A stretch of 63,250 nt of DNA, the filler included, from Reclinomonas americana ATCC 50394 (Eukaryota), in the NCBI GenBank assembly GCA_048213135.1. It is 8 parts of 3 records of this genome, joined end to end, with 100 filler letters (N's around TTAATTAATTAA, not from the genome) between each part and the next. Parts side by side here need not be neighbours in the genome. Positions count along the whole stretch, not along the records: positions 1 to 18,863 come from PS015809.1; positions 18,964 to 25,895 come from PS015811.1; positions 25,996 to 42,809 come from PS015811.1; positions 42,910 to 46,404 come from PS015811.1; positions 46,505 to 58,079 come from PS015812.1; positions 58,180 to 59,270 come from PS015812.1; positions 59,371 to 60,789 come from PS015812.1; 1 more part is not named here. The stretch is one strand, 5' to 3'. Both the position numbers and the translations under genes were made by a program. Positions 83 through 60,711 of this stretch are shown piece after piece; position 1 is the stretch's first letter, and each line of letters starts with the position of its first letter. The notes under the pieces were generated by a model. It saw only the letters and a list, made by a program, of their open reading frames with translations. It did not search any database and was not told the DNA's origin.

Positions 83-1773
83 GACCTGGAACATATGAGG
101 CCAAGCCGACAGTGGGAGCGCCGGGAAAGCCGCGGTACACGCTGTCGGGACGCACAAAGTTCATCAAGAGTGATAAGACAGTGGGCCCAGGCGCATATGA
201 AGGTGAGGAAATGGAGGAGGAGGAGAGAGGGGCGCCAAAGGAGGGAGTGATTGTAGTGTGAGAGAGGAGGCCGTCTCCTTCTGAGTGTCTTGTGATCTTC
301 TGATAAGTCATGCGAGGGTCCACTGTGAGAAGCCGCCTTCAGAGACTCTACTGATCTTCTGATAAGTCAGGCGGAGTATTACTTAATGAGGAGTCCATTG
401 CGAGAAGCCGTCTCTTTCTGAGTGTCTGCTGATCTTGAAAAGTGAGGCGGAGAATTGCTTCATGGAGGTCCACTGTTAGAGAGGAAGGAAACGAGTGTCT
501 GCTGATTGTGATAAGTGAGGCGGAGAATTGACTTTTTGTTGTCTCCTTCTGAGTGTCTGATGGGTCTTGGGAAGTGAGGCGGAGAATTGACGTCATGAGC
601 GTCCACTGTGCATTGTTAGAGTGGAAGCCGCTTCCTTATGAGAGAACTGATCTTGAAAGGTGGGGCGGAGAATTGTCGTCATGAGACCTGCACTGGTAGA
701 GAGAAGCCATCCCTCTTCTTCTTCTGCGTGTTACTGATCGTGATACAGGAGAGTGGACGTCCTTAGGCGCATTGCGTTGTTTAAGAGAGGATGCTGTCTC
801 CTTGGGTGTGAGCTAGCGAGGCGGAGATCTGAGGCTGAGAGAGGAGAATTAGGGTTTGAGAAGTCATTTTCTCCTTGCGATAAGTGCGACGGAGAATTGT
901 CATCAGGAGTGCATTATGTTAGAGAGAACGCTGTCTCCTGTTGCGTGTGAGCCGATACGTGAGGCGGAGAATCGACTTTCGTGGTGTCTCCAACAATCCT
1001 TTCAATCACACAATGTTGATGTCACACCTTTATCTGCAGTGAAATCTTTGACGTTCTTGGATCTCACCCTTGCTTTCCCGAACCCGCACAGCCAAGCCCA
1101 ACCAGACGGGACCCAAGTTCACCATGCGACCAAAGACCAAGGGCAACAAGTCCGACAACATACCTGGACCGGGAACGTATGATCAGAGTTGCGGCACTGG
1201 GCACAGCTGCTTCTCCTTCCTCTGCCTCTGCTTCCAACTTCCCCTCTCACCACGTCCCCCCCTCCCACTGCAGAGGTCACGGGTCACACGACACCCAAGT
1301 GGACGCTGGCGGCGCGAATCTCGATTGCCGACAAGGAGCGATCGCCGGGACCGGCCAAGTACGAGGCCGAGGCCAACAGGCTCAAGCCGCGCGATCCGGC
1401 CTACACCATGCGTGCCAAGTTCCCCATCAAGGGTGCGTGTGTGCGTTTTCTCGCATTGTCGGCAATGATGAGAGCGGAACTCACTCTCCTTTTTTGTTCG
1501 CACAGACATGCCGAATCCAACGGGTCCGGGTCAGTATGAGCCCAAGGCATACGTCGGCACCGACACTCCCAAGTACACCATGCGGTCTGTCTGTCAGTCT
1601 CACTCGTCACCTCTCCCATGTGACACGCGCACTGACACCCTCCTGCGTGTGCACGCAGACCACGAGTGGGCACGGAAAAGCCAAACACGATGCCGGCACC
1701 GGGAGCGTACACGCCACAACCTGCTGTGGTGCTCCCGAAGAGCCCTCAGTTCGGATTCGGAACTTCGACCTGA
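83..1773 (+). CDS. ODF3-like SHIPPO-repeat (PGP-repeat) axonemal protein, 5'-partial, multi-exon
   Basis: Repeated PGPG-x-Y motifs (GPGTYE, VGPGAYE, IPGPGTYD, SPGPAKYE, TGPGQYE, PAPGAY) separated by P-K-[YFW]-T-[ML] motifs. Exons join in frame across GT-AG introns such as 203-1091 and 1188-1273; TGA at 1771-1773. Confidence 0.85.
260..975. repeat. Degenerate intronic minisatellite, units of about 60-90 bp
   Basis: Recurring cores (A)AGTGAGGCGGAGAATTG, CTGAGTGTCTG and CTGATCTT inside the long intron of the ODF3-like gene. Confidence 0.75.
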
Positions 1774-1938
1774 GCGGAAACAGAGAGCCTCCCCGTCACC
1801 CTGTACATCGCCCGCGCGAAGTGCCAGTAGGGTTAATCCTCTGGTGCCGCCGATAAATTGAATGAAGTACACTGCGTGTGTGCGTGAAACGACCTGCCTT
1901 ATTCATTCGAGCAGATTTAAACAAGTTGTGCAAACAAA

Positions 1939-5298: not shown

Positions 5299-6992
5299 GA
5301 GAGCAACCAATGGTGGCGATTGTGTTTGCGCTCGGCCTCGCCGTGTACGGCTACTGGCGACGCAGTCTGTCGCTCTCTGGCGCCTTTGCGGCCTTCTTTG
5401 TTGCGCGCGCGCGTTTGTGTGTGCGTGTGTGAGAGAGAAGAGAAGACACTGAGAACGAGTTGTCAAACAGGTCGGCCTCATCACACTGGCCTCGGGTCTC
5501 GTCAAGGGCCTCATGCTGGCCCTCTTCTTCCTCTCCAGCTCGCAACTCACCAAGTTCAAGGCCAGCATCAAGAAGAAGCTGGAGCCCGAGTTCAAAGAAG
5601 GTCTCTCTCTCTCTCTCACCCATTCTCTTGCGCATCTCTCACTCTCACTGCAGGTGGTCAGCGCACATGGGTTCAAGTGGTCTCCAATGGCGGTTTCGCC
5701 ACACTCTTGTGCCTCGTGCACGCGTCGCTGTTTGCGGGGCGAGAGTTCTACTTGGACGCGGAGAGGAGACCTGTGCAGACGTTCCTCGCCTGTGCCTTCC
5801 TCGGGTCTGTCTCTCTGGTGTGTGTGTGTGTGAGTGAGTTGTTAGTGCTCATGTTGTGTGTCTCAGGCACTATGCATGCGCGTGTGCGGACACGTGGGCC
5901 AGTGAGATTGGCATTCTGTCAAAGAGCGATCCCGTGCTCGTCACCAACTTTGTGTCGGTGCCTGCGGGCACCAATGGTGCTGTGTCGCCACTGGGCACGT
6001 TGACTACTGCTGTGGGCGTTGCGTCTCTCATTCTATCAGGCGTGACTGCTTGACTTGCTTGATTGGTTCACGTTGCGTGGCGCTGTTGACAGGGTACCTT
6101 CCTCGGCTTCTTCTTCTATGTTGGCACGCTGTTGTTTTGCCAGTCGCAGGGCAATGAGCCGGCGCAGTGGCCCATTATCTTGTTTGCCACGGCGGCGGGC
6201 GTGCTGGGGTCGCTGGTACGTCTTTCTCTTCGTCTTCTCTTTCATGTCCTTCTTCTCTTTCCTGTTCTCCTTCTTGTTGGTGATATTGTTCTTCTTCTTC
6301 TCTTCCAGTTCCTCCTCCTTCTTGCTCTTGTTCTTCTTCTTCTTCTTCTTCTCTTCCTTCTCCTTCTTCTTCTCCCTTTCTTCTATTCCATCTCCTCTTT
6401 CTTCTTCTGCTCCTTGCTCTCCTTTTTGCTGTTCTCATCCTTCTCCCTGTCTTATACTCCATCTCCTTCTCCTTCTTTTCCTCCCTTTCTATTCCATCTC
6501 CTTCGCATCCTTCTTCTTCTCCTTGTCTTCCTCTAGTTCTTGCCTTTGTTCTCACCCTGCTCTTCTTCTTCTCCTCCTTCTCCCTCTTGGTCTCCTTCTT
6601 GTTGTTCCCTTTCATGTCCTTCTTCTCCTTCTAATCCTTCTCCTCCTCCTTGTCTTCCTTCTGCGTCACCCTCCTGTTCATGTTTTTGTTCTCACCCTGC
6701 TCTTCTCCCTCTTCTCCCTTCTTCGTTTGTTGGCAGATTGATTCGATCCTGGGAGCCACGGTGCAGTACAGCGGATGGGACGTGCACGCGGAACGCGTGG
6801 TGTACCGCCCGGCGCCGCACGTGCGCACTCTGTGTGGCATGGACTTGCTCGACAATCACCAAGTGCGATCTCGAACATGTCTGCTTCTTTCTTGTGCTGG
6901 TCACTCATGATCCTCGCTCTCTGTAGGTGAACTTTGTCGCCAACACCGTCACCTCGCTCCTCGCGGGTGTGGCGTCGCTGTGGATATTCTGA
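5299..6992 (+). CDS. TMEM19: TMEM19 / DUF92 family membrane protein
   Basis: Spliced motifs [71 protein letters not shown] and LLDNHQVN; TGA at 6990-6992. The true 5' end is uncertain. Confidence 0.92.
6216..6736 (+). repeat. Polypyrimidine (CTT/CT-rich) intron of TMEM19
   Basis: About 520 nt that are almost entirely C/T on the sense strand, bounded by GTACGT...CAG. Confidence 0.85.
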
Positions 6993-7097
6993 AGCGCCGG
7001 CAGCCACGGAAGTGAAAAGAGGATAATTTTATGCTGGCGCGTTGGCCTCTATACACACAATACGCAGCGTGACAGGTGGGAAAGCAAACACGCACTC

Positions 7098-8779
7098 TCA
7101 GCGATCCTCCAGCACCAGACGGTTGAAGGGATGATCGTCCTCGTGGTACTCCCTGTCGCGGGGACGAACCACGAGCACCGAGCAGGGACTGTGAAGGACA
7201 CGAGTGAGCAGCTGGCGGAAAAGAAAAGATACGTGTTTCGGCGCAACGAATGGTGAACGAGCCAGTCCGACGTGCTGTGCATGCGTTGAGCACTCTTATC
7301 GGGAGGAGACAACAAATAGAAGGCACACACACAAACCTGCCGGCTGTCAGCTTCTTCATTCCACTGTGCACGCAAAAGGTGAGATGGAGTGCGGCGATCG
7401 AAGGCACGGGTATTGAAAACACGCAACGTGACACCGCGAGCGCCAACCACAATAATGTCAACGCTGTCGTTCTCGGCAACTTGCGCCAGAGCCTCTCGCG
7501 GGTTCTTTGACGGAATGACCTGCCACAACAACCAGCAGCGTGAGGGCAGAGATGGCATACAAAGCCTTCTTCCAATACGAAGCCAACCTTCTTGCGCAGC
7601 TCAATCTCGAGACGCTTGCGACCCATCATACGCTGCGCATAAGGCGACAAGGTGTGAGTGTGACCACAAACATCGCGCTATCCAGAACAGTGAGGGTCGA
7701 CGCAACGTTCATGCGAAACTCGGCCATCATCAGCAGCCGTCCCATGTGTCTAATATCCTTGGTCGACGCCTGCCACACTCCCATCAGCACCGGCAATGCA
7801 CCACAGCGGACAGACAAAGACGCGCACCTGAAACTCGCGGCTCTCGCTCAGCCACAGCGGCGGCTCAATGGACACACGCGGACTGGCGGCCGGACTCGCC
7901 GCCGCACTCGACGATCGCGAACTCACTGCACCCGCACAGCCACGTCAGTCTCTTTACCAGAGTGAAAACCACAAGAAGACAAGTAAAAAAGACCTCGCGG
8001 TTCCGATGCCGATGCCGACACAGGCGACAAGAACGACGACGACGGCTGCGAGCGCACATCTGGCAACGACGCCGACGCCAGCTGCAGGTGCTCATCCAAG
8101 TCGGCCTCGATCGCCGCCAGATCCGCCTTGAAATCCGACAACTGTGCACATGGAGCGTAATAAACAACTCCGTCGCCGCCGCGCGCCTGTTTTCCGATCA
8201 GCACACTTGCCTCGATGAGCTTCACAAAGCCCGCGTCACTGGGACCAGCCTGCAGTCACCACACAGACGCATGAGACCAATGTGTGCGAAATACTTTCTT
8301 GCCTGATTGCGACAAACCACATGCGGTCGCTTTGGTGGTTTGCACACGCCCACCAGCTGCACAGTGTCGCCTGCGCGAGGAAAGAAGTATCAGTCAAACT
8401 TGCCTCTTATCTCTCTCTCTCTCTCTGTGTGTACTCAGTTGACGTGCCTGGCTGCACAATAGTCGCACATCGCTGCGTTGTTCGAAAAGGATGTGTTAGC
8501 AAGATTCTCGATGCGAGAAAGCGAACGTCTGAGAGTGAGTGAGTGAGCGAGAGAGTGACTTGCCTCTGCAGCGCGGTACTGTGCACCATTGCATAGACAG
8601 GGAGCACAGTGTGAGCGCAGAGAGAGAGAGAGCGTGAGAGAGAGCAAAAAACGAAACACTGTACGCGGATCCGTCGACGGCGACCCTGCGTGACAGCGTA
8701 TGAGTCACACACGCGCGCGCTCTCTCTCTCTCTCTCACAGACAGGGAGGCACTTGCAAACGCAACATGTAGTGCACCAT
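7098..8779 (-). CDS. Universal stress protein (USP/UspA domain) with an internal S/A-rich insertion
   Basis: Spliced product MVHYMVAVDGSAYSYRAAERCATIVQPGDTVQLVGVC...PREALAQVAENDSVDIIVVGARGVTGMKKLTAGSTSDWLVHHSPCSVLVVR carries the USP N- and C-terminal signatures, including G-x2-G-x9-G-S-T. Confidence 0.88.
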
Positions 8780-8893
8780 TCTCGTCGCGCAGAGAGTGAG
8801 GGGAAAAGGATGTGTCCTACCGTCCTCTCTGCGCATGATCCACCGACACCGACTGCAGTGAGTGTTGCTGTGAGCGCTGACCACTCGGCAACC

Positions 8894-11446
8894 ATGGAGA
8901 CCATTGCAATGAAGGAGGAGGAGGACGCGGTGCTGATGAAGCCGGAGAACGACTTCTCGTTGCGCAAACTTTTCCTCACTTACACTCTCATGCGTCTCTC
9001 TCTCTGTGCCACTCACACTGGTCGTGCTTGACCGGCTCACAGAGCAGAGACCACGGCACTGATCAGCGCACAGCGCGAGGCAGTCAAGTCTGTTGCGTTT
9101 GAACGAACTTGCACTCTTGTCGCACACAGAGAAGACAACAACCTCACACAAATGTGTGCGTTGTCCAGGGTGCCTCCATTGCATCGGCCATTGACACGCT
9201 GCTGGCGCAAGAGAAGAAGACGCGTTTGGTGAGTGTCACACACGGTGAAAGTNNNNNNNNNNNNNNNNNNNNNNNNNNNNNNNNNNNNNNNNNNNNNNNN
9301 NNNNNNNNNNNNNNNNNNNNNNNNNNNNNNNNNNNNNNNNNNNNNNNNNNNNNNNNNNNNNNNNNNNNNNNNNNNNNNNNNNNNNNNNNNNNNNNNNNNN
9401 NNNNNNNNNNNNNNNNNNNNNNNNNNNNNNNNNNNNNNNNNNNNNNNNNNNNNNNNNNNNNNNNNNNNNNNNNNNNNNNNNNNNNNNNNNNNNNNNNNNN
9501 NNNNNNNNNNNNNNNNNNNNNNNNNNNNNNNNNNNNNNNNNNNNNNNNNNNNNNNNNNNNNNNNNNNNNNNNNNNNNNNNNNNNNNNNNNNNNNNNNNNN
9601 NNNNNNNNNNNNNNNNNNNNNNNNNNNNNNNNNNNNNNNNNNNNNNNNNNNNNNNNNNNNNNNNNNNNNNNNNNNNNNNNNNNNNNNNNNNNNNNNNNNN
9701 NNNNNNNNNNNNNNNNNNNNNNNNNNNNNNNNNNNNNNNNNNNNNNNNNNNNNNNNNNNNNNNNNNNNNNNNNNNNNNNNNNNNNNNNNNNNNNNNNNNN
9801 NNNNNNNNNNNNNNNNNNNNNNNNNNNNNNNNNNNNNNNNNNNNNNNNNNNNNNNNNNNNNNNNNNNNNNNNNNNNNNNNNNNNNNNNNNNNNNNNNNNN
9901 NNNNNNNNNNNNNNNNNNNNNNNNNNNNNNNNNNNNNNNNNNNGATGCCGAGAGATGTGTGTCGGCTGCAGGTCTCATGTGCGTTTGCTTGTGTTGTTGT
10001 CGGGTAGGTGGAGACGTGCGGGTCGATGGAGCGTCGGGAGCGGTTCGAGTACATTCTGGAGCAGATGCGCATGTGTTTGGCGGCGCAGGAGTACGTGCGA
10101 GTGCAGCTGCTGTCGAAGAAGGTCGGCGCGCGTGCGCTGGGCGACAAGGAGTTCCAGGTGAGGGTGGGAGAGAGTGGAAGAGGGAGAGAGGGAGGGAGAG
10201 GAATACACGCACACACGCCCAACGACTGCGCATTCACACCCTCGTACATTCTTTCTCTCTCTTTCTCTCATTCTCCTTCTGACCATTTTTCGCACGTCTC
10301 GTGGCACGCAGGATCTGAAGGTCCGCTTCTACGAGCTGATGCTGCAGTACCACCTGCACCGCCGCTCGTTCCTCGACGTGTCGCGATCATACCAACACAT
10401 TTTCCACACGGACGTCGTGCAAGAGAACCAGGCTCAGTGGACCGAGGTATGTCGCGACGTGCACACGATCCCCACGAGTCGCGGGTATCTCACGTACATT
10501 TCGTTGGTGTGGTGCAGGCGTTGCGCAGCTGTGTGGTGTTTGCCATTCTGGCGCCGTTCGACTCGGAGCAGCTCGACTTGGTGTTGCGAATTCAGCAGGA
10601 GAAGAAGCTGCGCGAGCTGCCGTACTACCAGTTGCGCTCGCTTCTTTCCCCCCTTTGCTTGGTGCAGTCGTTTCCTCTTTTCTCACAACGGTGTGCAGGA
10701 ACATGCTGAAGAAGTACATTGATGACATTCTCGTGGACTTTGACACGGTGATGGCAGTGGATCCGGTCACTGGCGAGGGACCACACGCGGTGTTCTCGAG
10801 CATGGAGACCGGTGTCGAGTTCACTGACGAGCTGAGGAAACGCACCATTGAGCACGTGCGTGTGCGACCTGAAGCATTTTGGGGTTTCCCTGGTGATTTC
10901 TTCCTCCTAAATTCGGCGTGTCACACACAGAACGTCCGTGTGGTGGCCAAGTTCTATAAGCGCATACGAGTGGACCGACTGGCCTTCATCCTGGGCCTGA
11001 GCTCGGAAGCGACAGAGGAGTACGTGGCCAAGATGGTGTCTCTGAAGACCATCTACGCCAAGATCGACCGCATCGACGGCACCATCTCGTTTGTGCCGCC
11101 GACCACACCCGACCGTGTGCTCAGTTGCGTTTCCGTGTTGCAGCAAAGACCGTGTGGCGCAATGGTAGCGCAGCAGAGTTCTAATCTGTAGGCTGGGGGT
11201 TCGAGTCCCTCCATGGTCTCCTTCTTTTGTTGTCAGGGGGGTTTATGGTTGGGGGAGGTACAGTTGGACTCACTATTTTGATTTTTTGTGCCAAAAATAG
11301 ACGAGTGGAGCCGCAAGGTGTCGGATCTGCTGAGCTTGGTGGAGTCGAGCTGCCAGCTGATTAGCCGCGAGAACATGGTGTACAAGTTGGACGTGGACCC
11401 AGCCACCGCGGCAGCAGCAGCCGCCGCCGCCGCAGCCGCCGACTAG
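8894..11446 (+). CDS. RPN5: 26S proteasome lid subunit RPN5/PSMD12 (middle exons fall in an N gap)
   Basis: LLAQEKKTRL, VETCGSMERRERFEYILEQMR, ILAPFDSEQLDL, LRKRTIEHNVRVVAKFYKRI, IYAKIDRIDGTISF and VLNEWSRKVSDLL...QLISRENM; TAG at 11444-11446. Confidence 0.96.
11148..11219 (+). tRNA. tRNA-Arg (anticodon UCU) inside the last intron of RPN5
   Basis: Cloverleaf: acceptor GACCGTG/CATGGTC, D arm GCGC-AATGGTA-GCGC, anticodon arm GCAGA-GTTCTAA-TCTGT, T arm GGGGG-TTCGAGT-CCCTC. A and B boxes intact; TTTT just downstream. Confidence 0.85.
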
Positions 11447-11972: not shown

Positions 11973-13991
11973 ATGCCGAGCGCAGTGTGGAGAACCTCCG
12001 CGCTCTTTGGCGTGTGCACAGTGTTATGCATCGCCGCCACTGCGACTCAGATTGTCGGTCTTGCCACCACACACTGGCTGTTGCGCACACGAACTCACAC
12101 CACACACACACACTCACTCTATTTCTTACTGCCTCTCACGATCACTCACACGCAGAGAGGAGTCCTGCTCCGATTCAAGCGCGTTCAATGCCGGCCTATT
12201 AGAACGGTACTCCAATGCACACACACACGCACACTGAGCGCAAGAGACTGACGCAGAATGCACACACAGAACGCTGTGTGTGATTACACTCAACGGATCG
12301 TTTCGTCACACTCTCTGCTCGCTCGCTCGCTCGCTCCTTCTCTCTCTTACACACACTGTGTGCATAGTCGCCTGTGCTCCTCATGTACGAACTGCGAGGG
12401 ACCAGGAGGGAGCACAGTCGGTCGCGATGTTGCGCACACACAAACAATCGAACAGGCTTTTCGATATCTGCGTTTTCCTTATCATTGTCGTCGCGGTGCT
12501 GCATTGCAGAGCTTCATTTTAGCGGTGATTGCCGGCGTTTGCACTGCTGTGGCGCTCATTGCAGCTGCCTGGGCGTGGGTGCTGGCGCCTCGGCGACATG
12601 TGGTGCTGTGGGCAACAGCACTGGTTTGCATGTCATTCCTCCTCCATTCCCTCGCGACTGTTGCGCTCATTCTGTTGTGTGCAGGTGGCCATCTTTTGTG
12701 GATGTGCGCTTAGCTTGGCGGCGGTGGCGTACTACTCGGCCGCGGTCGATCGCCGATCGGCGTGTCCGTCGCCTACGCGCACGTGGATCTCGTGGAGCTG
12801 GTCGTTCAAGGTGTACTGGTGAGTCGCTTGCGGCGATGGAACAACGCCCCTCTGCGTAGCACACTCATGTGTTGTCGCAGGAGTGGCGCCATGTTGGCCT
12901 GGTTGGCGTTTCTCGCTCTCTGCATGGCGTGCATTCCGCGTCTCTTCTGTGGCGATCGTGACGGTGGCGGCAAGCAGGCAGACAAGTACACGCCGACGTC
13001 GCCAGTTGGTCGACTGCCGCTGTTGCAGATGGACACGACCTCGTCACCGATGCAGTCGCCGACCAGGGCGTTTGAGCAGAGCGCACCGGAGACACCACCG
13101 GCGGTGAGCTCACGCGCTGCGGCGGCCGTGGCGCCCGCGACGCCCTACACGCCGACCACAATGGCGCTGCCGCACACGCCAGCCGGAATCATTCTCCTCA
13201 CGCCTCCGTCGCCGGCGAATGGCGCGGATTCGACGGAGCATGCCGACATGCTGCTGCTGCATCCGCCGCCGCGCCAGCAGGTGGTGGCTCCGCCGGAGCC
13301 CATTCGCCTTCCCGAGCGAGGGGGAGTGGAGCCCATTGACTGGCTCGCGCTGTCGGCCGCCCTACCGTGGCGCCGCACACCCGCCGACGCCGAGCGTCGC
13401 AAGGTGCTGTTTACGGAGATCGACGCCAACGGCAATGCAATGCTGTCGATTGGCGAACTGGATCGCGCCCTGCGCACGATCCCCGGCCTCGAGGTGCTGG
13501 CACGGGCTCGACCGGCACTCGACCGGGCGTTCGACGGAGCACGTGCGCTCAGCCGCCACAAGACGCCGCGCGATCAGCAGATTGCCGATCGTTTCGTCGA
13601 GGCCAACGAGTTCCGCACGTTCCTCGTGCTGCTGCTGCGCAACGTGGAGATGTGGGACCTGCTGTGCCGCGCCGATGTGGACGACGACCGCGCGCTCTCC
13701 TTTGCCGAATTCTACAGCCTCAAGCCGGAACTGACCACGCGATGGGGCCTGGTGCTCCCCGCACGGAGCGCCTCGGCCGCCGAGAGCGTGGAAGACGTCG
13801 AAGAGGACGACACAGACGACAGCGCCGCCGCCGACGACCCGGATCGTCGCGCGTGGCAGACCGTCTTCCGACGGGAGTCCGCCCCCAGACTGCCACCACG
13901 CATGGTGTTCAACGAGCTGGCAGGCTGGATGGAACGCCTGCAGTGCCGGCGACGCGACACCGAACAGCATCCGGACCTCGAGTGGGAGTAA
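11973..13991 (+). CDS. Claudin/PMP22-like four-TM protein fused to a C-terminal flagellar calcium-binding protein (FCaBP/calflagin)-like EF-hand domain
   Basis: TM1 then W...GLL...C...C loop, two further hydrophobic helices and WSWSFKVYW before TM4. A P/T-rich linker leads to IDWLALSAALPWRRTPADAERRKVLFTEIDANGNAMLSIGEL...FVEANEFR...DVDDDRALSFAEF. TM4 and the EF region lie in one exon. Confidence 0.75.
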
Positions 13992-14195: not shown

Positions 14196-17100
14196 ATGAC
14201 GCGTGGTGTCGCACTCCTCTCGCTCCTCCTCGCGGTGGCACTGCTCACGCTCAGCGCACACGCAGCCGTGCTGACTGAGAATGGTCACTTCCTTCTCGCA
14301 CACATGTGTGACGCATCTCTTCTCACTCCTCCACACACACTCTCTCTTTCTCAGACGCCTCCGCCTCCAGTGAGCCGCACATGGCTGCGAGCTATGAGCA
14401 CCTGGGATACGACGACTATGGTGATGTCAGTGGCATCTCGGCTTCCGCCTCTCCGCACATGACTGCATCAGTGCGTGTTGGCTCTGTGATGCGTCAGGCC
14501 GACGGCACTTGGCGTGTGATCAGCACCATTGACATGAGCAGTGAGTTGAAATCATGATTGCCATGTAATGCAGTCAGCCAAGTCGCTCATTGTCTGTCAT
14601 TCGTTGGAAGACTCTGTCGCCTATGGTGTGTACAACAACACCAACTTGCAAGTCGGTTGGGGCGTGTTGCGCATGCAGGTGTCGGCGGCCACTGACGCCA
14701 ATGATGCCGACAAGGCGTATGCTCTCGGTGTGTATGTGTCGCGTGTTGCGCTTGGTGTCGCGTGACTGACGTGCGCAAAGGCTTGCTGGAGTCGTACCTC
14801 ACGTGGGATCTCATGTTCTACTACACGCAAAACTACATGCTGAATGAGGTGAGCTGCGCGTGCTGTGCGGTCTACCCTCCCCGACGTGAGCGTGCATGTG
14901 TGTGACCCGCGGGGGTCATCGCAGTTTGGTGCCATGCTGCCGAATGCTCCGGCTGGTGAGTTGACCGCCGCCGCAGTTGAGAGGAGTCATCAGTGGTAGT
15001 AATGGTGATTCGTCGCAGGCTACTGGGACTGGTTCAGCCAGCAGCAGCAGTTCATTCAGAGTCAGATTGCGTCGCGCCAGAACAATTCTCCCGAGTGTTG
15101 CGTGCCGGCGATCGACGGTGTCGTGTGTTTCCTGCTCACACCTGTGTCCGTACACAGTGATGCGCTACTGGCAGGCGCAGTACCTGCTGGATCAGCAGTT
15201 TTCTGGCATGGTCGCCGGCTACAATGCCTTCCGCCAGGCCCCTGCAGAGGTACGCGATTGCGCATTCTTGTTTTCTTTTTCGCTCTGCATTTCTGACGCG
15301 ACGACGATGATGTTCTTTTGTTTCTCTCTGTTTCCGCAGCCGCTGTCTCGCCTTCGTTTCGCACTGCTCCGCATTTGCTGTGATTACGACTCTGCCGTCT
15401 CACACATGTTGTGTGTCCACCGCAGAACTGTACTTGCTGCAGTCGGCTGGTGACCTTTACGAGCTGAACGACAAGGTGACGTACAGGGTAGTGTGTTGCA
15501 TGCGTTTCGTTCATCGGTGGTGTGATGCTCACGCAGAAGATTGTCTGCAGTTCAACGTCACCAAGGGCCCCGTGCACCACCTCAGCATGCGCCCCGGTCT
15601 CACCGAGTGCTCCGCCATTGTGCAGGTAACAGGAGGCCGCCCGTATTGCTCTTCTCTCCGTTTTTTTCTCACTCTGCGCGTGCTGGCTCACAGTTTTGCC
15701 CGGGTCAAGATCTCTACGCAGCGCATGTCACCTGGCGGTGAGTCGACGAGCACATGCACGCTGTGGCTTTCTGTTGCAAGAGAACTCACGAGATCATCGT
15801 CGCAGCCCGTGGTACTCTGGCGGACTGCGCATCTGGAAGGTTTCGTAGTGCTCTTGTGAGGTCAAAGTTCTCGAAATCGACAACAAACGTCATTCATGAA
15901 CCAGCTCGTCACCTACCGCTACACGAGCATTCCGAACGTGTCGTCGCCCTTCACAGTCGCCACGTCGAGCTCGCCGACGTTCCTCAGCTCCAAGGTTTGT
16001 TGCGAATCGTACCACCTTTGGCTGATGCACCGGCCGTAACTCTGTGTGCCATGCCTCGCGCAGGACGATTTCTTCATTACCGGCAACCGCCTCACCGTAA
16101 TGGTCAGTTGCTCTTCAGAGAGACGAGAGAATGCAAGTTCGTCCTCTCACATTCTGCACGCGGCGCGCAGGAGACGACAAACTCGGTATTCAACAAGTCG
16201 CTGCTTGACCTCATCATGCCGCACAGGTGACAGCAATTGTGTGTGCATCACATGCGCCCCGCGCCACGTCATGACCCTCTGCTTGCAGTGCTCTGTGCTG
16301 GCAGCGAGCCGTGGTCTCCAACCTTCTCTCTGCCAATGGCGATGAGTGGACGGTAAGTGCTGCACGCCTGAGATTGACATGTCCACATCGCAGCACGCTC
16401 ACTACTCTCTGTGCGTGTGTGTGTGTCTCTCTCTCTCCAGACCAACTTTGCGCGGTTCAATTCCGGCACGTTGCGTAGAGCAGTTGGCGTGGTCTCCTCC
16501 ACCCATTCTCGTCGTGCGCCTCCTCATTGGTTGTGTGATGCAGGTACAACAACTTCTGGCACGTGATTGACGGCAAGAACTTCAACAAGCAGTCGACAAC
16601 GCTGGTTGGCATTGCACGCATGTATGTATGTGTGTACGTGTAATGCGGGATGTACTGATTGACAACGGCACAGCCACCGGGCACTCTGTGGGCCGTCGAG
16701 CAACTGCCTGGCCAGACGCAGCGCGGGGATTTGACTGCACAGATCAACGCCAATGGCTACTTTGCCACCTACAATGTCGTGCGTGTCATCGTGCCGTTTT
16801 TGTCAAGAGTGCCGCTACTATGATCTCACTCACTTCCCTGATGCTGCTACGCACCCGTGACAGCCGTACTTCAAGGTGAATGCTCTCCTTGCCCTTGTGA
16901 AAGATGGTTGTTGCCGTGCTCACATGCGCGACAGGAAATCTATGATGCCTCCGGCTACGAGGACATGTTCAAGAAGAAGGGCGACGAGTACTCGTTCGAC
17001 AAGTGCCCGCGCGCCAACATCTTCCGCCGCTACGCACTCGGCAGCAGCGGCACCGCCAAGTATTCGGTGAGTGTGCATGCTGTGGTGCACACAAATTCTT

Positions 17101-17599
17101 TTATTCACCGTCTCGTTGCAGAATTGTGCGGCCGACACCAGCAAGGTGAAGCAGATCATTCAGTGGAACGACTTCCAACACGACCCGCTCTCGATGGGCG
17201 ATCCCATGAATGCAATCGCCTCGCGTGGCGACTTCCTCTCTGGCTCCCAGGGCAAGCCGGTGGCTTTCGGCGGCACCGACGGCAAGGTACGTGCAGCAAT
17301 GCACACACATCCTCCGCCGTCGCTCATTCTCGTGCACAGATTTCTGCTGCTTCTCGAGTCGATTTCCTCGCGGCCGATGCCATTGTGGGCCCGACCCACG
17401 AGTCTCTGCCGCCCTTCCGCTGGTCGGAGCACCCCGAGTTCGCCGGCGTGCACCATGCCGGCGCACCCGACCTCTTGTTGCGTCCCGCTCCCGCTCATTG
17501 CCTGCGTCTCCTGTTCTCTCTCACCTGTACGCCACGCGCAGCAACTTTGACTGGATGAACATCTCGTCCAAGTTCCCGACTGCGGAGGTGGACGAGTGA
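14196..17599 (+). CDS. Phospholipase B-like protein (PLBD family, secreted/lysosomal Ntn hydrolase), about 20 exons
   Basis: Signal peptide; GWGVL, ECSAIV (catalytic Cys), AHVTW, SSKDDFF, ETTN, NSGTYNN, EQLPG, YNVPYF, PRANIFRR, NAIASRGD, GGTDGK, GPT...PPFRWS and PDLFNFDW; TGA at 17597-17599. Confidence 0.95.
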
Positions 17600-18863: not shown

Positions 18864-18907
18864 NNNNNNNNNNNNNNNNNNNNNNNNNNNNNNNNNNNNN
18901 NNNNNNN

Positions 18908-18919
18908 TTAATTAATTAA
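18908..18919. other. Artificial scaffold-joining linker (six-frame stop TTAATTAATTAA flanked by N)
   Basis: The identical 12-mer sits between equal N runs here and at 25940, 42854, 46449, 58124, 59315 and 60834. Confidence 0.97.
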
Positions 18920-19138
18920 NNNNNNNNNNNNNNNNNNNNNNNNNNNNNNNNNNNNNNNNNNNNTCCGCCGCCGCCAGTGTGCACGAGCGACACGCAGTGC
19001 ATGGGCTACGGAGTGGGTCGTGCCGACAATGGTGGACTGTTTGTCGGCGGTCGCTGCGTGAGCAAGTTGCGTTGATGTGGACGAAGCATGTAGGCTTCAG
19101 GGAAAGAGAGGAGAACTGACGATTATGCATGTCGTGCA

Positions 19139-19806: not shown

Positions 19807-22800
19807 ATGTTGGTTCGCAACCATTTCCCCGCCTTTGCTCTCACTGCACTGGTGCTTGTCACCGTTGCCGTTGCACTCCTCTCGTCGAGCGTCTCTGCTG
19901 TTCCCGCCTCTGTGCGCACGCAGTCGCAGTGGCCGTCGTCGGCGGTGAAGGTCTGTCTCTCACACGCGCAATGCATCGCGGCTCCATTTGCCATGATCAT
20001 TCACGAACAACGCGCACGCAGGTCAAGCCGCTGACTGCGACGTCTCCCCGCATTAACGTTGCCTACACTGGTCCCGCAATTGCCTCGCCCGCTGCTGCCT
20101 CTGAGGCGCTGGGAGAGCACGAGGTGCTGCCTGCGGAGGTGCGCACACCGGAAGATGCGGCGCTCTTCCACGCACGTCGCCTCCTGTCTGCCTCATCAGC
20201 AACCATGTCTGTCACTCGCACTCATGCGGCAACTCCCACTGGTTTGTGTGTGTGTGTGTGTACATGTGTGTGTGGCGCGCGAGCTCGAGTTCCATACAGT
20301 TTGTGTGTTTGTTGCTTGCCTTTGTTTTGTGTCTAAGTGCGAAATGTCCATGTACACCCGCACACACTCCTTCGCACGCTTCTCACACTGTGGCACCACC
20401 ACTCGTGCACGTAGTTTGTTTTCTGCGTGCGAAGCGAGTCGGGGTTTCGAACTCGAACATACCTGCGCGTGGGAATTTGCCTTCTTTGTCTCTTCCCGTC
20501 ACTCTTCCTCTCTCTCCTCCAGTTCTCTTTGTCTCTCTTTCTCGTGTAAGCACACTGGCATAGACACGCACAGACTCTGCACGACACCATATTTTTCCGA
20601 AGATGCACCACTTTTCCTGTTTTCCGAAAATTCATCTTCTCTTCACACACACAGCCGAGTCGGATGTGGNNNNNNNNNNNNNNNNNNNNNNNNNNNNNNN
20701 NNNNNNNNNNNNNNNNNNNNNNNNNNNNNNNNNNNNNNNNNNNNNNNNNNNNNNNNNNNNNNNNNNNNNNNNNNNNNNNNNNNNNNNNNNNNNNNNNNNN
20801 NNNNNNNNNNNNNNNNNNNNNNNNNNNNNNNNNNNNNNCGGGGAGGGAGAGAGAGGGAGAGAGGGAGAGAGGCTCTTTTCTCATGGAGTGTGACACGCAG
20901 GCGTTCTTCCCGGAGGCCGATGGATCGCTGACTGCCGCGTTCTTTGTGGAGTTCGATGCTACGGAGTCGAATGCGACCACGGCACTCAAGCGTCCGTCGA
21001 CATTCCGCTTTGTGGTGGCGAGCGAGTCGTGGCGCGTGCTGGAGTCGGCTAATTTGACGCAGAGCGAGTCTTACGACTACCGTGTGTGGGCGCGCGACAA
21101 CAACCTTCCCGCTGATTCCCCGACGGAGGACTGGACTCCGCATCCAACTGGCTCACCCGACGGCTTGTTCCCGGCCTTTGTGCCCCAGTCACTTATTTCG
21201 ATGGACTCATTCAACAAGTTCCACGACTCGTGGCTGCCGGTGAACGCGACAGAGACGCGCGGCAACAATGTGGATGCCTATGCCGACTTGGCGGCGCCGG
21301 ATGGCTTCAGTCTCGGCGATCTGCGTGCGACAGTGACGGCACCGAACACGTTTGATCGTGTGTTCAACACGACGCTGGACGCGCAAGAGTCGGATGATCA
21401 GATCATGGCAGACGTGACTCAGCTGTTCTACGCAACCAACTTCCTGCACGACTACTGGTACGACTCTGGCTTCGACGAGGCAGCTGGCAATGCGCAAGAC
21501 GACAACTTTGGTCGTGGCGGTGTCGGAGGCGACTCGATGCGGGCCGAGGCACAGGACTACTCTGGACACGACAACGCCGACATGACGACGCCGTCAGATG
21601 GCATGCGTCCGCGCATGCAGATGTATCTGTCAACCTCGAGCGTGACGACTAATTTGTTGCTGACACCACCGGGAACCACTTTCCCGCTTACTGGCTATGC
21701 TGGTTTTGGCCCGGTTACATACTCGGTGCGTTTCTCATGTGTGTGTGCGTGCGGTATATGCAGTCGTCGCAGCTGAAAACTGACAATTTCTTTTTTGTCG
21801 TGTTAAATTAGATGGATGGTCCATTGACTCTTGTAACATCCGACCCGTTGGCGTGCTCACCGCTGACTGAGGACCTGACTGGAACGATTGCTGTTATCCA
21901 GCGTGGTCTTTGCAGCGCTCAATCCAAGGCGTACCGTACGCAGCAGGCGGGTGCCGTTGGCGTCATCTTCATCAACTTGGACGACTATTTTTCCAATATG
22001 TCGTTTGATCCGACGGTGCCTCCGGTGACAATTCCCGCCTTGGCTGTGCAAAAGTCTACGGGCCAGGTCATCAAGGACAACCTCAAGCTCGGCCCCGTGA
22101 CCGCCAAGATCGACACGACGAAGTTTTACCGTGGAAGCAGCTTGGATTCTGTTGTGTTCCACGAGTGGGGTCACTTCCTGCACCTTCGCTTGGCGCCAAC
22201 GTGCAATACGGTCATGTGCGCTTCGATCAGCGAAGGAATTGCCGACTTCAACGCACTGCACACGATGCTGCAGAGCGGCGACAACCTGGACGGCACCTAC
22301 GCCATCTCCATTTACGAAGGCCGCGACGCGTACTTTGGTATTCGTCGACTGCCGTACAGCGTGGACAAGACGAAGAACCCGGCTACGCTCAAGAACATTT
22401 CCATTGCGGTGCCGTTCACCTTCGCCCCATCTGTTGCCATACACGTAAGCCCTGGTGACAATAATGAGCCGCACAACGCAGGCGAGGTGTGGGCTGCTGC
22501 GATGTTTGAGGTGTGTCGTGTCATCTTCTGAATCGAGGTGTTTGTGTTTGTGGAGAGACTCACCGTCGCTCGTGTCGCCAGGGTTACATTGGACTGCACA
22601 AGAACCCCAATGGCCGCACCTTCGCGGAGGTCAAGCGTGCAATGGCCGACTACGTGGTGGCTGGCCTGCTGACGGTGTCTGGACCTGGAAGCTACGTCGA
22701 CTACCGAGACTCGTTCCTGACAGCCGCGAATGCTGTAAATCCGGCCGATGCGGCGATCTTGGCTTCTGGATATGCCACCCGTGGACTCGGTTCGTTTCTT

Positions 22801-30643: not shown

Positions 30644-32111
30644 TTACTCGTCGGCTGGTGGCGCGGCCGGTGGCGGTGGAGGCGGCGGTGACGGCGGTGA
30701 GAGCGGACGTTGCGGGACGTGGATCCGTGCCAGCTCCTCCATCTCCTCGTCTTCCTCGCCGTCCATGTCGACATCGGCGGCGGTGGAGCCGGATGCAGCA
30801 GCAGCAGCAGCAGCTCCGTCGTCGTCGTCGTCGTCACCAAACGCGCCCGGGCTGTTGTCGCCGGGCATGGGCGTCGGCGGGAACTCCTCGACTGCAGAGG
30901 CGGCGGCCAGTGCGGCAGCCGCCGGCTCCACCGCGACCTCCTCGACGGGGATCACGGGGAAGTAGTAGGGAGCCCACTCGTGGTAGAGGCGCTCGTCGCT
31001 GGCGAGGAACGTGCAAAAGATAATGGACTCGAACTGCGCCGCTCGTGATTCGTCGGCGTCGAGCCACTCGCGCACCGTCCGCAGTGCGCAGTGCACGGCC
31101 AGGTCCGGTGGGTACCCTGCGCGGATTGTGAGACGGGGAGAGTACACGCAGGGAGGGAAGAGAAGAGAGAGAAGGGGAGAGAGAGGGAGAGGACAATAGC
31201 AGTGAAAGATTGCCAACAAGAGAGGAGTGCTGACCGTAGATGCCGGTGCTGATGCAGCAAAAGCACACCGAGTGCAGGTCGTTCTCCTTGGCCACCGCCA
31301 GGCATCGGCGATAGCACGACGCGAGATCGGCATAGTCCGATCCGCCCTCGACGCACCGTCGATTGCTTCCACGGCCTGCACACATCGCGTTCAGCAGAGA
31401 AGGCAAAGACACAAGAGCAGACAAGGGGACTCACAGATGGGTCCCACAGTGTGCAGCACATGCTTGGCCGGCAACGCATGCCCGCCCGTGATCTTGCAAT
31501 CGCCAGTCTCGCACCCTCCCAGACGACGACACTCGGCCACCAGTCCCGATCCCGCCGCACTGTCAGTCGCTCGCAGTCAGTCACACACTGTGTATGAGAG
31601 ACACAAGACACATGAGAAAGCGTGCGAAACGAGTGAATAGCTCCATCAATGCCTCCTCCGCCCAACAACGAGTGGTTCGCCGCATTGACAATGGCATCGA
31701 CTGCGAGACGAGTCATATCCCCCGACCAAATCTGCACACACAGACTGCTATTGTCAGTCACACATGCATGTGAAGAATGCTCACTGGTCCTCTCTGACAG
31801 GCCTTCACAATGCCATTGTGTCGCCTGTGATGCACGCCATGTGTGAGCACAATAAAAAAAAAAAGTCTTGTGTAAACACACACAGTCAAACGCAACTCGT
31901 TGACCGGGAAACGCACGAAACGCTTGAGTGGGTCCTGTAACACAGCGCAGAGAGTGTGTCAGCAAGGCACAGAGAGCACATGAGAGGCAGAGTGAGAGAC
32001 CTGTTTTGGCGGGAGCACTTGTCTGCCTCGCGCCACATCCAGCTCAGCAAAGAGCGTGCTCCACGAGGCAATGCTCGCGTGCTCAGTGACCGCTGCTCGA
32101 CGACGAAACAT
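30644..32111 (-). CDS. MacroD-type macrodomain protein (O-acetyl-ADP-ribose deacetylase / mono-ADP-ribosylhydrolase)
   Basis: [80 protein letters not shown] and IIFCTF; acidic, Pro-rich tail. Confidence 0.95.
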
Positions 32112-32249: not shown

Positions 32250-33151
32250 ATCTCTTCTCTCTCTCTTCTCTCACTCTCTTTTGTGTGCATTAGTGTTGCT
32301 GCGTCTGCACCGGAAGACGAGGAGGAGGTGGCGCTTGCACGTGACAAGATCCGCTTTGAGATGGAGCTGGAGTTCCTGCAGTGGCTGGCCAATCCTGTGT
32401 ACTTGCATTGTTGAGTGTGCACACACACACGCACACACACACACACACACACACAGAGAGAAAGCATGCATTGCGCTCAACTTGTCTCCCTCTCGAGAGA
32501 AAGCATGCATTGCGCTCAACTTGTCTCCCTCTCTCTCACTGCACTCACTTTGCGTCTGTGCACAGGGCTCGCTGGGCAGGGATACTTTGAAAAGGAAGAG
32601 TTCCTCAACTATCTCGACTATCTGTTGTACTGGAAGGAGCCAGAGTATGCAAAGTTCATCATGTTGCGCACCACCATCGCAGCTGCTCTTTACAAGCATG
32701 CTCTCACTGTGTATGACGCCCCAGCTATCCGCACTCGTTGTTCTTTCTGGAGCTGTTGCAGGATGGGAACTTTAGGCGTGAGGTCAGCAATCCGCACTTT
32801 CGCGACTACTTGTACCAGCAGCAGGGCAACTTTTGGCAATTCTATCGTGCCAATCGTATGCGGGATGCCATGGAAGTGGCTGCGGCAGAGTCGGCGCTCG
32901 GTGGGACGGTGACGGATCAGCAGGTGACGGGTGTGCAGACGGCAGTGGGTGCAGCAGCAGGAACCGCGGCAGCAGCGCAGGCGGCTGGTGCGGCGGCGGC
33001 GGCGGAGGCGTCAGTGGCGAACTCGACGGCGTCGGGGTCGTCGGGTGCGACGACGGCGACGTCAGCGACAGGCAGTGGCAGGTCCTCTGGTGCACACACA
33101 ACAGCAGCAGCAGCCGCCGCTGCATCGGCACGTGCAAGAGGAGTTCCATGA
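32198..33151 (+). CDS. MED31: Mediator subunit 31 (SOH1)
   Basis: RFEMELEFLQWLANPVYLHWLAGQGYF...[33 protein letters not shown]...FRRE; Ala-rich tail. Confidence 0.96.
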
Positions 33152-36173: not shown

Positions 36174-36232
<59 letters not shown>

Positions 36233-36501
36233 ACTCTCTCACACACTCTCTTGTCACTCTTTCTTTGTCTCCCCTCTCACTCCTCTCTCTTCTCTCTCTC
36301 TCTCTTGCACCTGTCATAGTGAATCGCAGTTGCTGTTGCACCTCGTCCATGGGCCACACCAGTGTGACTTCACCCTGTCAAGTGCAAAGAGTGAGAGAAG
36401 AGAGACACACTCTGTGCTCACACTCACACACTCACACGCAAAGTGCAATCGCACGCATCCTCCTCTCGCGTGAGCGCCTCAAACGACTCAACACGATGCA
36501 T
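33193..36501 (-). CDS. POT1: Protection of telomeres 1 (POT1)-like ssDNA-binding protein with an additional N-terminal OB-like domain
   Basis: OB1 INLYAVV...VTLVDSS...LCRVGDVLRVRR; OB2 FGDVIGLV...VYLCDGT; C-terminal RIRVHAAH, CxxC pairs and LQLRLEDSSSGVWAYVAGKEAARFF...FQVFGT. Confidence 0.85.
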
Positions 36502-42740: not shown

Positions 42741-42793
<53 letters not shown>

Positions 42794-53325: not shown

Positions 53326-53362
<37 letters not shown>

Positions 53363-54977: not shown

Positions 54978-55030
54978 AGGTCGACAGACAGAAGAGGACA
55001 AGCAGGCAGGATCACAGTAAAACAATCTCA

Positions 55031-59010: not shown

Positions 59011-59155
59011 AAGCGCGAATGGGAAGGGAAAGGGAGGGAGGGAGTGAGCAGAAGGGTCGATTATCCTCATTGTGAACGTGCGTGTGTGTGCGTGTGTGTG
59101 TGTGTGCGACTGACTCTGTCTATCGACTCAATCGCTTCTCTCCACTCTTCCCATC

Positions 59156-59270
<115 letters not shown>

Positions 59271-59437
59271 NNNNNNNNNNNNNNNNNNNNNNNNNNNNNN
59301 NNNNNNNNNNNNNNTTAATTAATTAANNNNNNNNNNNNNNNNNNNNNNNNNNNNNNNNNNNNNNNNNNNNTTCGTCAGTCCTCTTGCGCGCTTCCGTTTC
59401 TTCGTTGCTACTTACCGCCTTCTCTCTCTTGCATGTA

Positions 59438-60711
59438 GCTCGTGTGCGCTTCCCCACGTGCTCCGACGCCGAAGTCGAATCAAGGCGAACGATGATTCGC
59501 AGCCTCTACTACCGCGTCATTTTCAATCTAATTTCACACGAGCGGCAGAGCTCACGCGGAGTTGCGTCGCGGGTGTTGTTGACCGTCAGTGCCAACTCAA
59601 CTCACACGCCGTGCGCAGGAGGCCATTGAGAATTTGATGCAAGCTCGCCTCATTCACCAGTCGTTTATCATCTGTGCGGTGGAAATGACCCTGGTGGCCT
59701 ACCAAGTTGCGCACCGACGCGTCTCCATTCTTCCTCGTCTTCGTCTTACTCACGTTTGGCGCGGAGCAGGTGCACGAGGGTCGATTTCCGTTCCTGCTTG
59801 ACGATCTCGGCCTGAGTGGATACGAGTTTTCGAAGACCACCGAGTTCTTCGTCACACATTGTGCAATTCAAGAAATGGTTCGTCACTCGCTGCGCCTGCA
59901 TTCATGATGCCCCTCTCCTCACGCATTATGTGTGTGTGCTCTTTCTGCTGCGCAGGGTGGTGTTCCGATGGAGCTGTATGGGAGCATTCGTTCGGTGACG
60001 GAGCGATGCTTGCTGGAGATTGGTTGGCGTGCTGGCGCTGGTGTGCTGTCGGCCACGTTGAACCAGGAGGCCATTGTCAATGACATCAAGTCGGTTATCG
60101 AGGCGTACGCCTCATCCAACGGCTCGCAATCGACGCAACCGTCGCCAGCCCGTCCCGTCGGTACGCACCGTTGATGCATCTCCTGCGTGTCGATTGCCGT
60201 TTGGCTGACTGTCACATCCTCCCCCCCTCCTCTCTCTCTCCCTGCCCTGCAGTGTCGGGACGGCATGGCTCGGCCTTTAGTCCGCTGGTGTCTGGGCACG
60301 CACATGTTGCTTCGGCGCCACTTTTCCCGTCGTCGCCGCAGCGCTCCACCGACCGTACACATGCGGTGCCGAATGTTGCGTTTGTGCGGTGGTCGCTCTC
60401 TGTTGTTGTGGTGCACGGCGACGCTGACAGCCACTCGCCTCTGCTAGATGTCGGCGACCACGGCCACACTCCCTTCGCCGCTTCTCACATCCAAGCTCCC
60501 GTCGTCAACTGTGGCCAGTGGCTCTGTCGGCTCCGCCCCTGTTCCGTCATCCTCATCTTCGTCTTCGTCGTCGTCGTCATCGAATTCTGGTCCCGGCCGC
60601 CCAGCCTTCCTGTCACCTGCGCCAATCCAATCACCACTCCGCGGCCAGGCTGGGCGCTCTGCCTCTGGATCCGCCGCATCAGGGCATCCAGTGCGCTTCT
60701 CGTACGCCGAG
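59438..60711 (+). CDS. Retinoblastoma-related protein, pocket A domain and SP-rich spacer
   Basis: RSLYYRVIFNLISHE...LIHQSFIICAVEMTLVAY...FPFLLDDLGLSGYEFSKTTEFFV...IRSVTERCLLEIGW aligns with the Rb-A consensus (LYYRVME, FH-x-SLLAC-x-LE, FPWIL, FYKVIE, IMESLAW). Confidence 0.85.

Follow-up and report, generated by a model that had tools for sequence, protein, structure and literature searches.

How a spliceosome fixes the exact base at which it cuts is an open question, given how few bases around the site pair with U1 and U6, and it is raised by the 5' splice sites (donors) in a stretch of 63,250 bases from the genome of Reclinomonas americana ATCC 50394, which we refer to as the window. An earlier inspection of this stretch, the original prediction, had proposed that beside ordinary donors with G at intron position +5 there is a large second set with G at +6, and had listed 31 GTTGCG, GTTGAG and GTTTCG motifs as its members, nearly all of them following an exon that ends in a base other than G. 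All 31 motifs lie at the coordinates given for them (for the minus strand, the coordinate of the donor's first G), and the preceding base is A, C or T at 29, the exceptions being 15840 and 18577, as claimed. Here we consider whether these motifs form a true donor class, how that class is tied to the last exon base, and in what register it might be read.

Introns were called with a Viterbi gene model that combined self-trained codon log-odds with GT..AG introns of 35-900 nucleotides (nt) and gave zero score to the donor sequence. On coding potential alone this donor-blind model returned GTTGCG as the top donor hexamer (6 of 110 introns, against 5 each for GTGAGT and GTGCGT), and after 3' features were added later (a length prior, YAG and, 8-45 nt before it, a CTCAC/CTNAY branch motif), with the donor still unscored, GTTGCG stood at 18 of 157, ahead of GTGAGT (8) and GTTTCG (6). 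Restricting intron length to 40-260 nt and dropping five predicted genes for which an overlapping opposite-strand gene scored higher gave a filtered set of 147 introns in 26 retained gene spans. A donor-trained set of 157 introns, whose donor table was self-trained and which is hence circular, serves as an upper estimate. We define class 1 as GTNNG[T/C] and class 2 as GTT[G/T]CG or GTTGAG. The filtered donor-blind set then divides into 49 class-1, 23 class-2 and 75 other introns, and class 2 makes up 38 of the 157 introns in the donor-trained set, putting its share at about 16% (donor-blind) to 24% (donor-trained). These fractions are rough, because many of the introns in neither class are probably mis-called, with misplaced donors. 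These and all other counts and frequencies refer to the one 63-kb window.

Independent positional base frequencies predict 1.02 GTTGCG donors among the 147 donor-blind introns, whereas 17 were found. The same set is bimodal, as had been anticipated: 60 introns carry G only at +5, 41 only at +6, 3 at both and 43 at neither. GTTGCG as such occurs 78 times on the two strands, against 52-55 expected from Markov models, and within the retained gene spans it favours the sense strand (43 sense vs 22 antisense, P = 0.013), as does GTTTCG (16 vs 4, P = 0.012). Donor-blind calls and junctions fixed by homology (below) together bear out a real and frequent second class with G at +6 rather than +5. Its proposed composition needs trimming, however: GTTGCG and GTTTCG stand, but GTTGAG was verified at a single site, 32410, and we have therefore redefined the class as GTT[G>T]CG[T>C]. 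Thus, there are two donor grammars in the window, G^GTNNG[T/C] for class 1 and H^GTT[G>T]CG[T>C] for class 2, where the caret marks the exon-intron boundary, H is any base but G, and the commoner base is written before the > sign.

Junctions were fixed by homology in two ways. In one, Pfam profile coordinates were obtained for both flanks of an intron, taken as unchanged stretches of the window; in the other, a hidden Markov model (HMM) built from 28 full-length RPN5 homologues was used to score every frame-preserving GT-AG alternative within 45 nt. Nine class-2 junctions are base-exact by these means (5400, 6018, 8959, 9092, 10631, 11124, 31630, 32410 and 32663; Table 1), and all nine restore both the reading frame and collinearity with homologues, as U2-type GT-AG introns do. 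In the TMEM19/DUF92 gene, the last residue before 5400 falls on DUF92 position 26 and the second residue after the intron on 28 (flank E values 0.094 and 8e-06), and across 6018 position 166 gives way to 169 at the third downstream residue; two of the DUF92 flanks are weak singly (E 0.09 and 0.08), yet collinear with the remainder of the gene. In RPN5, four of the seven scored introns are class 2, and all three ordinary donors rank first too. Spliced at 8959, the N-terminal part of RPN5 is collinear with profile positions 3-52, the exon downstream of the 11124 intron begins at RPN5_C profile position 6, and residues 1-284 of the spliced product are 44.6% identical to the best-scoring homologue (residues 203-476 of 477). 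The best full-length match came from a Mayorella transcriptome, with Acrasis kona next, and a fragment of RPN5 carrying the label of a bacterial metagenome-assembled genome also matched; all of these are distant. Split codons mark the remaining three: the Med31 flanks end at 21 and resume at 23 around codon 22 at 32410, where the Viterbi model wrongly took 32397, and end at 53 and resume at 55 around codon 54 at 32663, while the Macro flanks at 31630 end at 19 and resume at 21 around codon 20.

The donor-blind model called 16 of the 31 listed sites as donors and the donor-trained model 22, and the models yield 17 further candidate class-2 sites outside the earlier list. Nine listed sites were missed by the trained model, of which 32410 and 31630 were then proven by Pfam continuity and 7247 is supported by a micro-exon read by hand, leaving six (12080, 12300, 12429, 60375, 18577 and 31896) as candidates. 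The assertion that many junctions are fixed by conserved protein sequence holds for eight listed sites, in RPN5, MED31, TMEM19 and the Macro-domain gene. Junctions in the USP-like and phospholipase-B-like genes had also been cited. Here 17477 and 7427 agree with profile coordinates (Phospholip_B position 478 of 487 and Usp position 113 respectively, each at residue 44 of the 45-residue upstream flank), whereas for 16470 no independent homology test succeeded, a PDB search with its two flanks giving a chance dynein-light-chain match or nothing. The downstream flank of 15097 weakly matches Phospholip_B positions 92-119 (E 0.078). At 7247, the evidence is a 27-nt micro-exon on the minus strand (7248-7274) that lies between a GTTTGT intron and the GTTGCG intron and was skipped by the gene model; with 7336..7275 and 7247..7189 spliced out, the frame stays open through the C-terminal strand of the USP-like protein, and the short flanks of this junction matched no Pfam profile. 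Homologue searches with a phospholipase-B exon and with the RPN5 read-through open reading frame returned no matches, and metagenome-contig scans for orthologous introns, using the EF-hand exon and the apyrase exon, found no relative.

Class 2 is the dominant donor where the exon ends in a base other than G. Among the 76 donor-blind introns with non-G at exon position -1, GTTGCG (17) and GTTTCG (5) are the top hexamers, while the 71 with -1G use a broad mixture of GTNNGT hexamers. Viewed from the donor, -1 is G at 36 of 49 class-1 introns but only 1 of 23 class-2 introns in the donor-blind set (Fisher P = 1.6e-8), and at 42 of 54 and 1 of 38 in the donor-trained set, where the class-2 bases are A14 C11 T12 G1. 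Class 2 thus clearly has no -1G preference, and the predicted dependence on the last exon base survives as a strong contrast with ordinary donors. Active avoidance of G does not survive equally well. G stands before GTTG in 14% of its occurrences in the window, and relative to this background the depletion is marginal (binomial P = 0.15 for 1 of 23, P = 0.023 for 1 of 38); likewise, G precedes GTTGCG at 1 of 35 called donors and at 6 of 43 other occurrences (P = 0.12). More widely, the strength of a donor's intron side is known to be linked to exon -1G, for instance from maximal-dependence models of donor sites, and in other eukaryotes a donor lacking -1G makes up for it by matching GTAAGT more closely without a change of register. 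Class 2 likewise makes up on the intron side for the absent -1G, but does so with another motif that is longer by one base. GTAAGT, which would compensate best with canonical U1, is almost absent from the window, with 7 copies on both strands.

Both classes appear side by side within single genes, and towards the 3' end they are alike. Introns in the window are short GT-AG introns (median about 68 nt) with a CTCAC-like branch motif, CTCAC and not CTAAC, about 17-18 nt before CAG. For classes 1 and 2 respectively, the donor-blind set gives median lengths of 66 and 68 nt, CTCAC in 22 of 49 and 12 of 23 introns, and a CAG 3' end in 45 of 49 and 22 of 23; the median distance from branch A to 3' splice site is 18 and 17 nt, and CTNAY is found near the YAG acceptor in 45 of 54 and 33 of 38 introns, the branch figures being read in the knowledge that the gene model rewards CTCAC/CTNAY alike in both classes. 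Shared length, branch motif, branch distance and 3' end suggest that the same machinery acts at the 3' side. The acceptor list, scanned by eye and not quantified, revealed no 3' ends complementary to the class-2 core of their own introns. GTTTGT, with 29 sense and 4 antisense occurrences in genes, is a frequent ordinary donor.

The 5' end is a different matter. Class 2 is conserved from +1 to +7 (n = 38: G, T, T, G29/T9, C, G, T24/C11) with nothing beyond, and its T+3, C+5 and G+6 are invariant. When donors were paired in silico with the canonical U1 5' end, the mean duplex energy was -6.66 kcal/mol for class 1 and -1.32 kcal/mol for class 2, which took up no consistent register and placed +1G on U1 C9 at only 5 of 38 sites. 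Shifted or bulged U1 pairing, as in rare human donors, had been invoked in the original prediction; with the canonical U1 5' end, neither register gives appreciable pairing. Since canonical U1 barely pairs with class 2, an altered U1 is likely. A hypothetical U1 with ACGCAC gives -8.2 for class 1 and -6.2 for class 2, with +1G on C9 at 17 of 38 class-2 sites, and one with the one-base-longer ACGCAAC gives -7.3 and -9.0, with +1G on C9 at 38 of 38. Together with the scarcity of GTAAGT, these in-silico energies fit the view that U1 is probably altered in this lineage; the suggestion in the original prediction of a variant U1 or U6, or of altered spliceosomal proteins, is reasonable and has precedents in the U1 of Entamoeba and Mastigamoeba (bioRxiv 10.1101/2022.06.08.495308).

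Another way to view class 2 is through its geometry. GTTGCGT differs from the extended class-1 consensus GGTGCGT in the second base only, and it is cleaved one base further upstream; this is the same geometry as in the shifted register of rare human sites. A bulge at +2/+3 would instead keep -1 opposite C9; -1G, which such a bulge would retain, is missing from class 2, so a shift is favoured over a bulge. On this sequence pattern, the spliceosome of this lineage probably uses two registers to recognise where introns begin. The explanation that we favour, tentatively and at somewhat short of an even chance, is that class 2 is read in a register shifted by one base and made efficient by a co-evolved U1. 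Both classes would be removed by one U2-type spliceosome. In class 2, the intron's +1G would take the place of the class-1 exon -1G and +3U that of +2U, and the GCG(U) core would pair one step further along U1. Bulk use of this register would be possible only through a co-evolved U1 pairing region with G opposite the conserved C, predicted to be approximately ACGCAC, or the longer ACGCAAC, instead of ACUUAC, and U6 or the catalytic core would have to accept a spacing from GU to the paired G that is longer by one base. A more ambitious version, which we regard as doubtful, is a two-register splice code in which a tolerant U6 or catalytic core, working with an altered U1 or with two paralogous U1s, would provide the standard route wherever an exon cannot end in G.

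Several observations weigh against the shifted register. If class 2 were simply the ordinary donor with one extra T, as had been supposed, the two motifs should mirror one another, and they do not: class 1 is free at +3 and +4 (at +4, A15 C15 G3 T21 of 54) where class 2 is fixed, its +5 C being invariant; GTTGAG is rare, while no class-1 hexamer is commoner than GTGAGT, with GTGCGT at most its equal; and the class-1 preference for +7G (28 of 54) is not repeated at class-2 +8 (10 of 38). With its rigid T+3, C+5 and G+6, class 2 is thus more than class 1 with an inserted T. A shifted register would also put -1 opposite U10, where A is expected, and the -1 bases given above amount to a weak preference. 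Of the model-called introns, about 40-50% belong to neither class, and the junctions are predictions from the DNA. The window has no U1, U6 or other small nuclear RNA (snRNA) detectable with Rfam at the gathering threshold or at E <= 1. Finally, a standard U1 coexists with C-rich +4 donors in Mamiellales and Thecamonas, according to the part of the preprint of Roy and Bowser drawn on here (2022, bioRxiv 10.1101/2022.06.08.495308), and a changed U1 therefore cannot be predicted from donor composition by itself.

Other explanations would dispense with a shifted register altogether. It could be that GTTGCG donors are chance motifs or misplaced junctions whose true donors lie elsewhere, and it is true that the junctions are predicted from the DNA, that six of the 31 listed sites are still candidates, and that a local intron-likeness score computed over every GT is too permissive to discriminate (GTTGCG passes at 23 of 77, against 12.7% of all GT). 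We nevertheless consider such an artefact very improbable, given nine junctions that are profile-continuous or best among frame-preserving GT-AG alternatives, and given the donor-blind enrichment and sense-strand excess. The rigid common 5' end would suit introners, that is, copies of a mobile intron-generating element with its own GTTGCG end. An all-against-all blastn of the 157 introns returned 25 pairs at E <= 1e-3, all of microsatellite type and none between two class-2 introns, which argues that class-2 introns are not copies of a mobile element; with conservation ending at +7 and host genes as old and conserved as RPN5, MED31 and TMEM19, this origin is scarcely credible. A rigid donor box within the intron, without a consensus on the exon side, is typical of U12-type introns. 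Class 2 resembles them in this respect, and a separate system akin to the minor spliceosome might handle it. Such introns would have a branch box of their own, however, and class 2, with its own donor box, matches class 1 in length, in its CAG 3' end and in both the motif and the distance of the branch site; its share of introns is also far above that of any known minor class, and we rate this arrangement as highly improbable.

The two alternatives that deserve more weight concern U1 itself. In one, an ordinary U1 would serve G^GTNNGT and a paralogue fully complementary to GUUGCG(U) would serve class 2, with a common downstream spliceosome. The rigidity of the class-2 motif, with seven nearly fixed positions and no exon-side consensus, and its near-zero affinity for canonical U1 fit this arrangement, and Physarum is reported, in the part of the same preprint used here, to have both standard and modified U1 variants (bioRxiv 10.1101/2022.06.08.495308). 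A second gene is not required, though, because one altered U1 can serve both classes in silico, and we think two U1 snRNAs unlikely. In the other, U1 would be canonical and would either bulge a U at +2/+3 or bind only weakly, the donor being recognised by proteins (U1C, LUC7, TIA1-like) and, at activation, by U6, U5 and Prp8; this would be the mechanism of rare human bulge-register sites operating at high frequency. Experiments in human cells have established both the +2/+3 bulge and shifted registers, as far as the consulted part of PMC4856993 describes them, and atypical donors coexist with an unchanged U1 in several lineages, by the portion of bioRxiv 10.1101/2022.06.08.495308 on which we draw. 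However, a bulge should still favour -1G, the mean pairing of class 2 is minimal, and its invariant +5 C has no partner in canonical U1, which leaves recognition without any change in U1 an improbable account.

One of the closest known parallels to the shifted register with a co-evolved U1 lies in human noncanonical registers, described in the part of Tan et al. (2016, Nucleic Acids Research, PMC4856993) that was available. There, summarising Roca and Krainer, the shifted register is one in which all pairs between 5' splice site and U1 move by one position, and validated noncanonical registers account for 3119 of 201,541 5' splice sites (1.5%), with a +2/+3 bulge predicted at 68. As here, GU is followed by an extra U, the conserved G lies one position deeper in the intron, and in the shifted register the intron's +1G takes the U1 position of exon -1G, which fits the missing -1G of class 2. 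Unlike class 2, these human sites are rare exceptions, whereas the class described here is far commoner, at the share given above, and is the main solution for non-G exon ends; moreover, the human sites are AAGUAU-type and pair with canonical U1, while the GCG core here is poorly paired by it.

Lineage-specific donors have also been described in other protists, again as presented in the accessible part of Roy and Bowser (bioRxiv 10.1101/2022.06.08.495308). In Entamoeba, a U1 with ACAAAC matches GUUUGU donors, and in Mastigamoeba balamuthi a candidate U1 with ACGUAC accompanies a preference for GUGCGC. These Archamoebae resemble the present case in having a donor that canonical U1 cannot pair with, explained there by changed U1 bases whereas the U1 change here is a prediction, and G opposite C at +4 is also the change favoured by our in-silico U1 scan. 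They differ in having one donor consensus in the normal register, as opposed to two registers within the same genes tied to exon -1. Mamiellales (Ostreococcus, Micromonas) and Thecamonas share a GC-rich GTGCG donor core, short introns, strong branch signals and a compact genome, but are described as having a single class with +5G, and the part of the preprint at hand mentions no +6G class or dependence on -1 in them. For gene structure, M. balamuthi is described in the part of PMC8136499 used here as having introns of 137 nt, 3.4 of them per gene, and spacers of 1.3 kb.

Literature searches for GTTGCG/GUUGCG donors, CTCAC branch points or noncanonical registers in protists found nothing relevant among the papers listed, although papers showing only a logo, and supplements, would escape them, and the pattern for this lineage may already be shown as a logo in some genome paper. 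Noncanonical registers have so far been known only as rare human exceptions. If the two-register code is correct, this would be the first noncanonical 5' splice site register to form a bulk, rule-governed class. The donor type is tied by a clear rule to the last exon base, with both types adjacent in the same genes. A fifth of introns with a donor one base longer would amount to a natural experiment on register choice, on the hand-over from U1 to U6 and on the co-evolution of snRNAs with their targets. There is a practical consequence as well: gene finders that use a single donor matrix would mis-call many junctions in this lineage, as our own model did in missing a micro-exon and one MED31 donor.

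Table 1. Class-2 introns, comparison introns and other features located in the window, with the gene and the basis of each assignment.
Feature	Position	Strand	Gene and basis
Class-2 intron GTTGCG, 71 nt, phase 0	5400..5470	+	TMEM19/DUF92; both models; absent from earlier list
Class-2 intron GTTGCG, 75 nt, phase 0	6018..6092	+	TMEM19/DUF92; profile continuity
Class-2 intron GTTGCG, 59 nt, phase 2	7189..7247	-	USP-like gene; hand-read, moderate support
Class-2 intron GTTGCG, 64 nt, phase 2	7364..7427	-	USP-like gene; both models
Class-2 intron GTTGCG, 84 nt, phase 2	8959..9042	+	RPN5, N-terminal part; rank 1 of 8, 22.4 bits, next 16.5
Class-2 intron GTTGCG, 77 nt, phase 0	9092..9168	+	RPN5; rank 1 of 12, 22.4 bits, next 18.7
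Class-1 intron GTGAGG	10158-10311	+	RPN5; rank 1 in HMM test
Class-1 intron GTATGT, exon -1 G	10447..10517	+	RPN5; rank 1 of 8 in HMM test
Class-2 intron GTTGCG, 68 nt, phase 2	10631..10698	+	RPN5; rank 1 of 4, 340.7 bits, next 329.9; donor-blind call
Class-1 intron GTGCGT	10856-10930	+	RPN5; rank 1 in HMM test
Class-2 intron GTTGCG, 177 nt, phase 1	11124..11300	+	RPN5; rank 1 of 24, 340.7 bits, next 336.9
tRNA-Arg(TCT)	11148..11221	+	ARAGORN; Rfam tRNA, 65.9 bits
Class-2 intron GTTGCG, 61 nt	15097..15157	+	Phospholipase-B-like gene; both models
Class-2 intron GTTGCG, 74 nt, phase 2	16470..16543	+	Phospholipase-B-like gene; both models
Class-2 intron GTTGCG, 65 nt, phase 2	17477..17541	+	Phospholipase-B-like gene, last intron; both models
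Class-2 intron GTTTCG, 71 nt, phase 2	31560..31630	-	Macro-domain gene; Pfam continuity
Class-2 intron GTTGAG (sole verified), 156 nt, phase 1	32410..32565	+	MED31; Pfam continuity
Class-2 intron GTTGCG, 62 nt, phase 2	32663..32724	+	MED31; Pfam continuity
Further class-2 donors, first base	1188, 14745, 15356, 15840, 19066, 37851, 38858, 39112, 55151, 55674, 56248, 59561, 59706	+	Trained model
Further class-2 donors, first base	61993, 58541, 50537, 43446, 35836, 34256, 33927, 33709, 27596, 27345, 27107, 8765, 8657, 7706	-	Trained model

The window has a G+C content of about 58% and contains 4,719 N across 20 gaps. Contigs are joined artificially by 44 N, the six-frame stop linker TTAATTAATTAA used for concatenating contigs, and a further 44 N, at 18864-18963 and nine further places, so adjacent stretches of the window are not necessarily genomic neighbours. 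Searching Pfam with its 150 longest open frames revealed eukaryotic genes on both strands: TMEM19/DUF92, RPN5 (PSMD12_N, PCI, RPN5_C), an EF-hand protein, a phospholipase-B-like protein and an M36+PA metallopeptidase, together with an apyrase, a Macro-domain protein, MED31, POT1, a kinase and THOC3. The source genome is compact and very intron-rich, its genes tightly packed and split into many small exons. TMEM19 and the USP-like gene converge with their ends about 106 nt apart (6992-7098), and the USP-like gene and RPN5 diverge from starts about 115 nt apart (8779-8894). The tRNA-Arg(TCT) is nested in the 11124-11300 intron of RPN5 on the same strand as its host, in an intron of 177 nt as against the usual 68 nt or so. 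The EF-hand (FCaBP-type) gene at 11974-13988 (+) seems to open with several tiny hydrophobic exons, from 11974-12079 onward, joined by the candidate class-2 donors 12080, 12300 and 12429; the model began this gene only at 12891.

A low-complexity repeat at 36042-36249 gave many sub-threshold Rfam matches on both strands (plant microRNA families, small nucleolar RNAs, the Leishmania Hsp83 3' untranslated region), which are almost certainly compositional rather than RNA genes. The M36+PA metallopeptidase gene (20883-24106, +) has no class-2 donor among its model-called donors. Its closest homologues are myxobacterial (Sorangium, Minicystis, Polyangia; 49-56% identity, 277-amino-acid exon), and its alignment to these is collinear, in six blocks with short introns in between. 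From this arrangement, it looks like a bacterial gene that was acquired by transfer and subsequently gained at least five introns.

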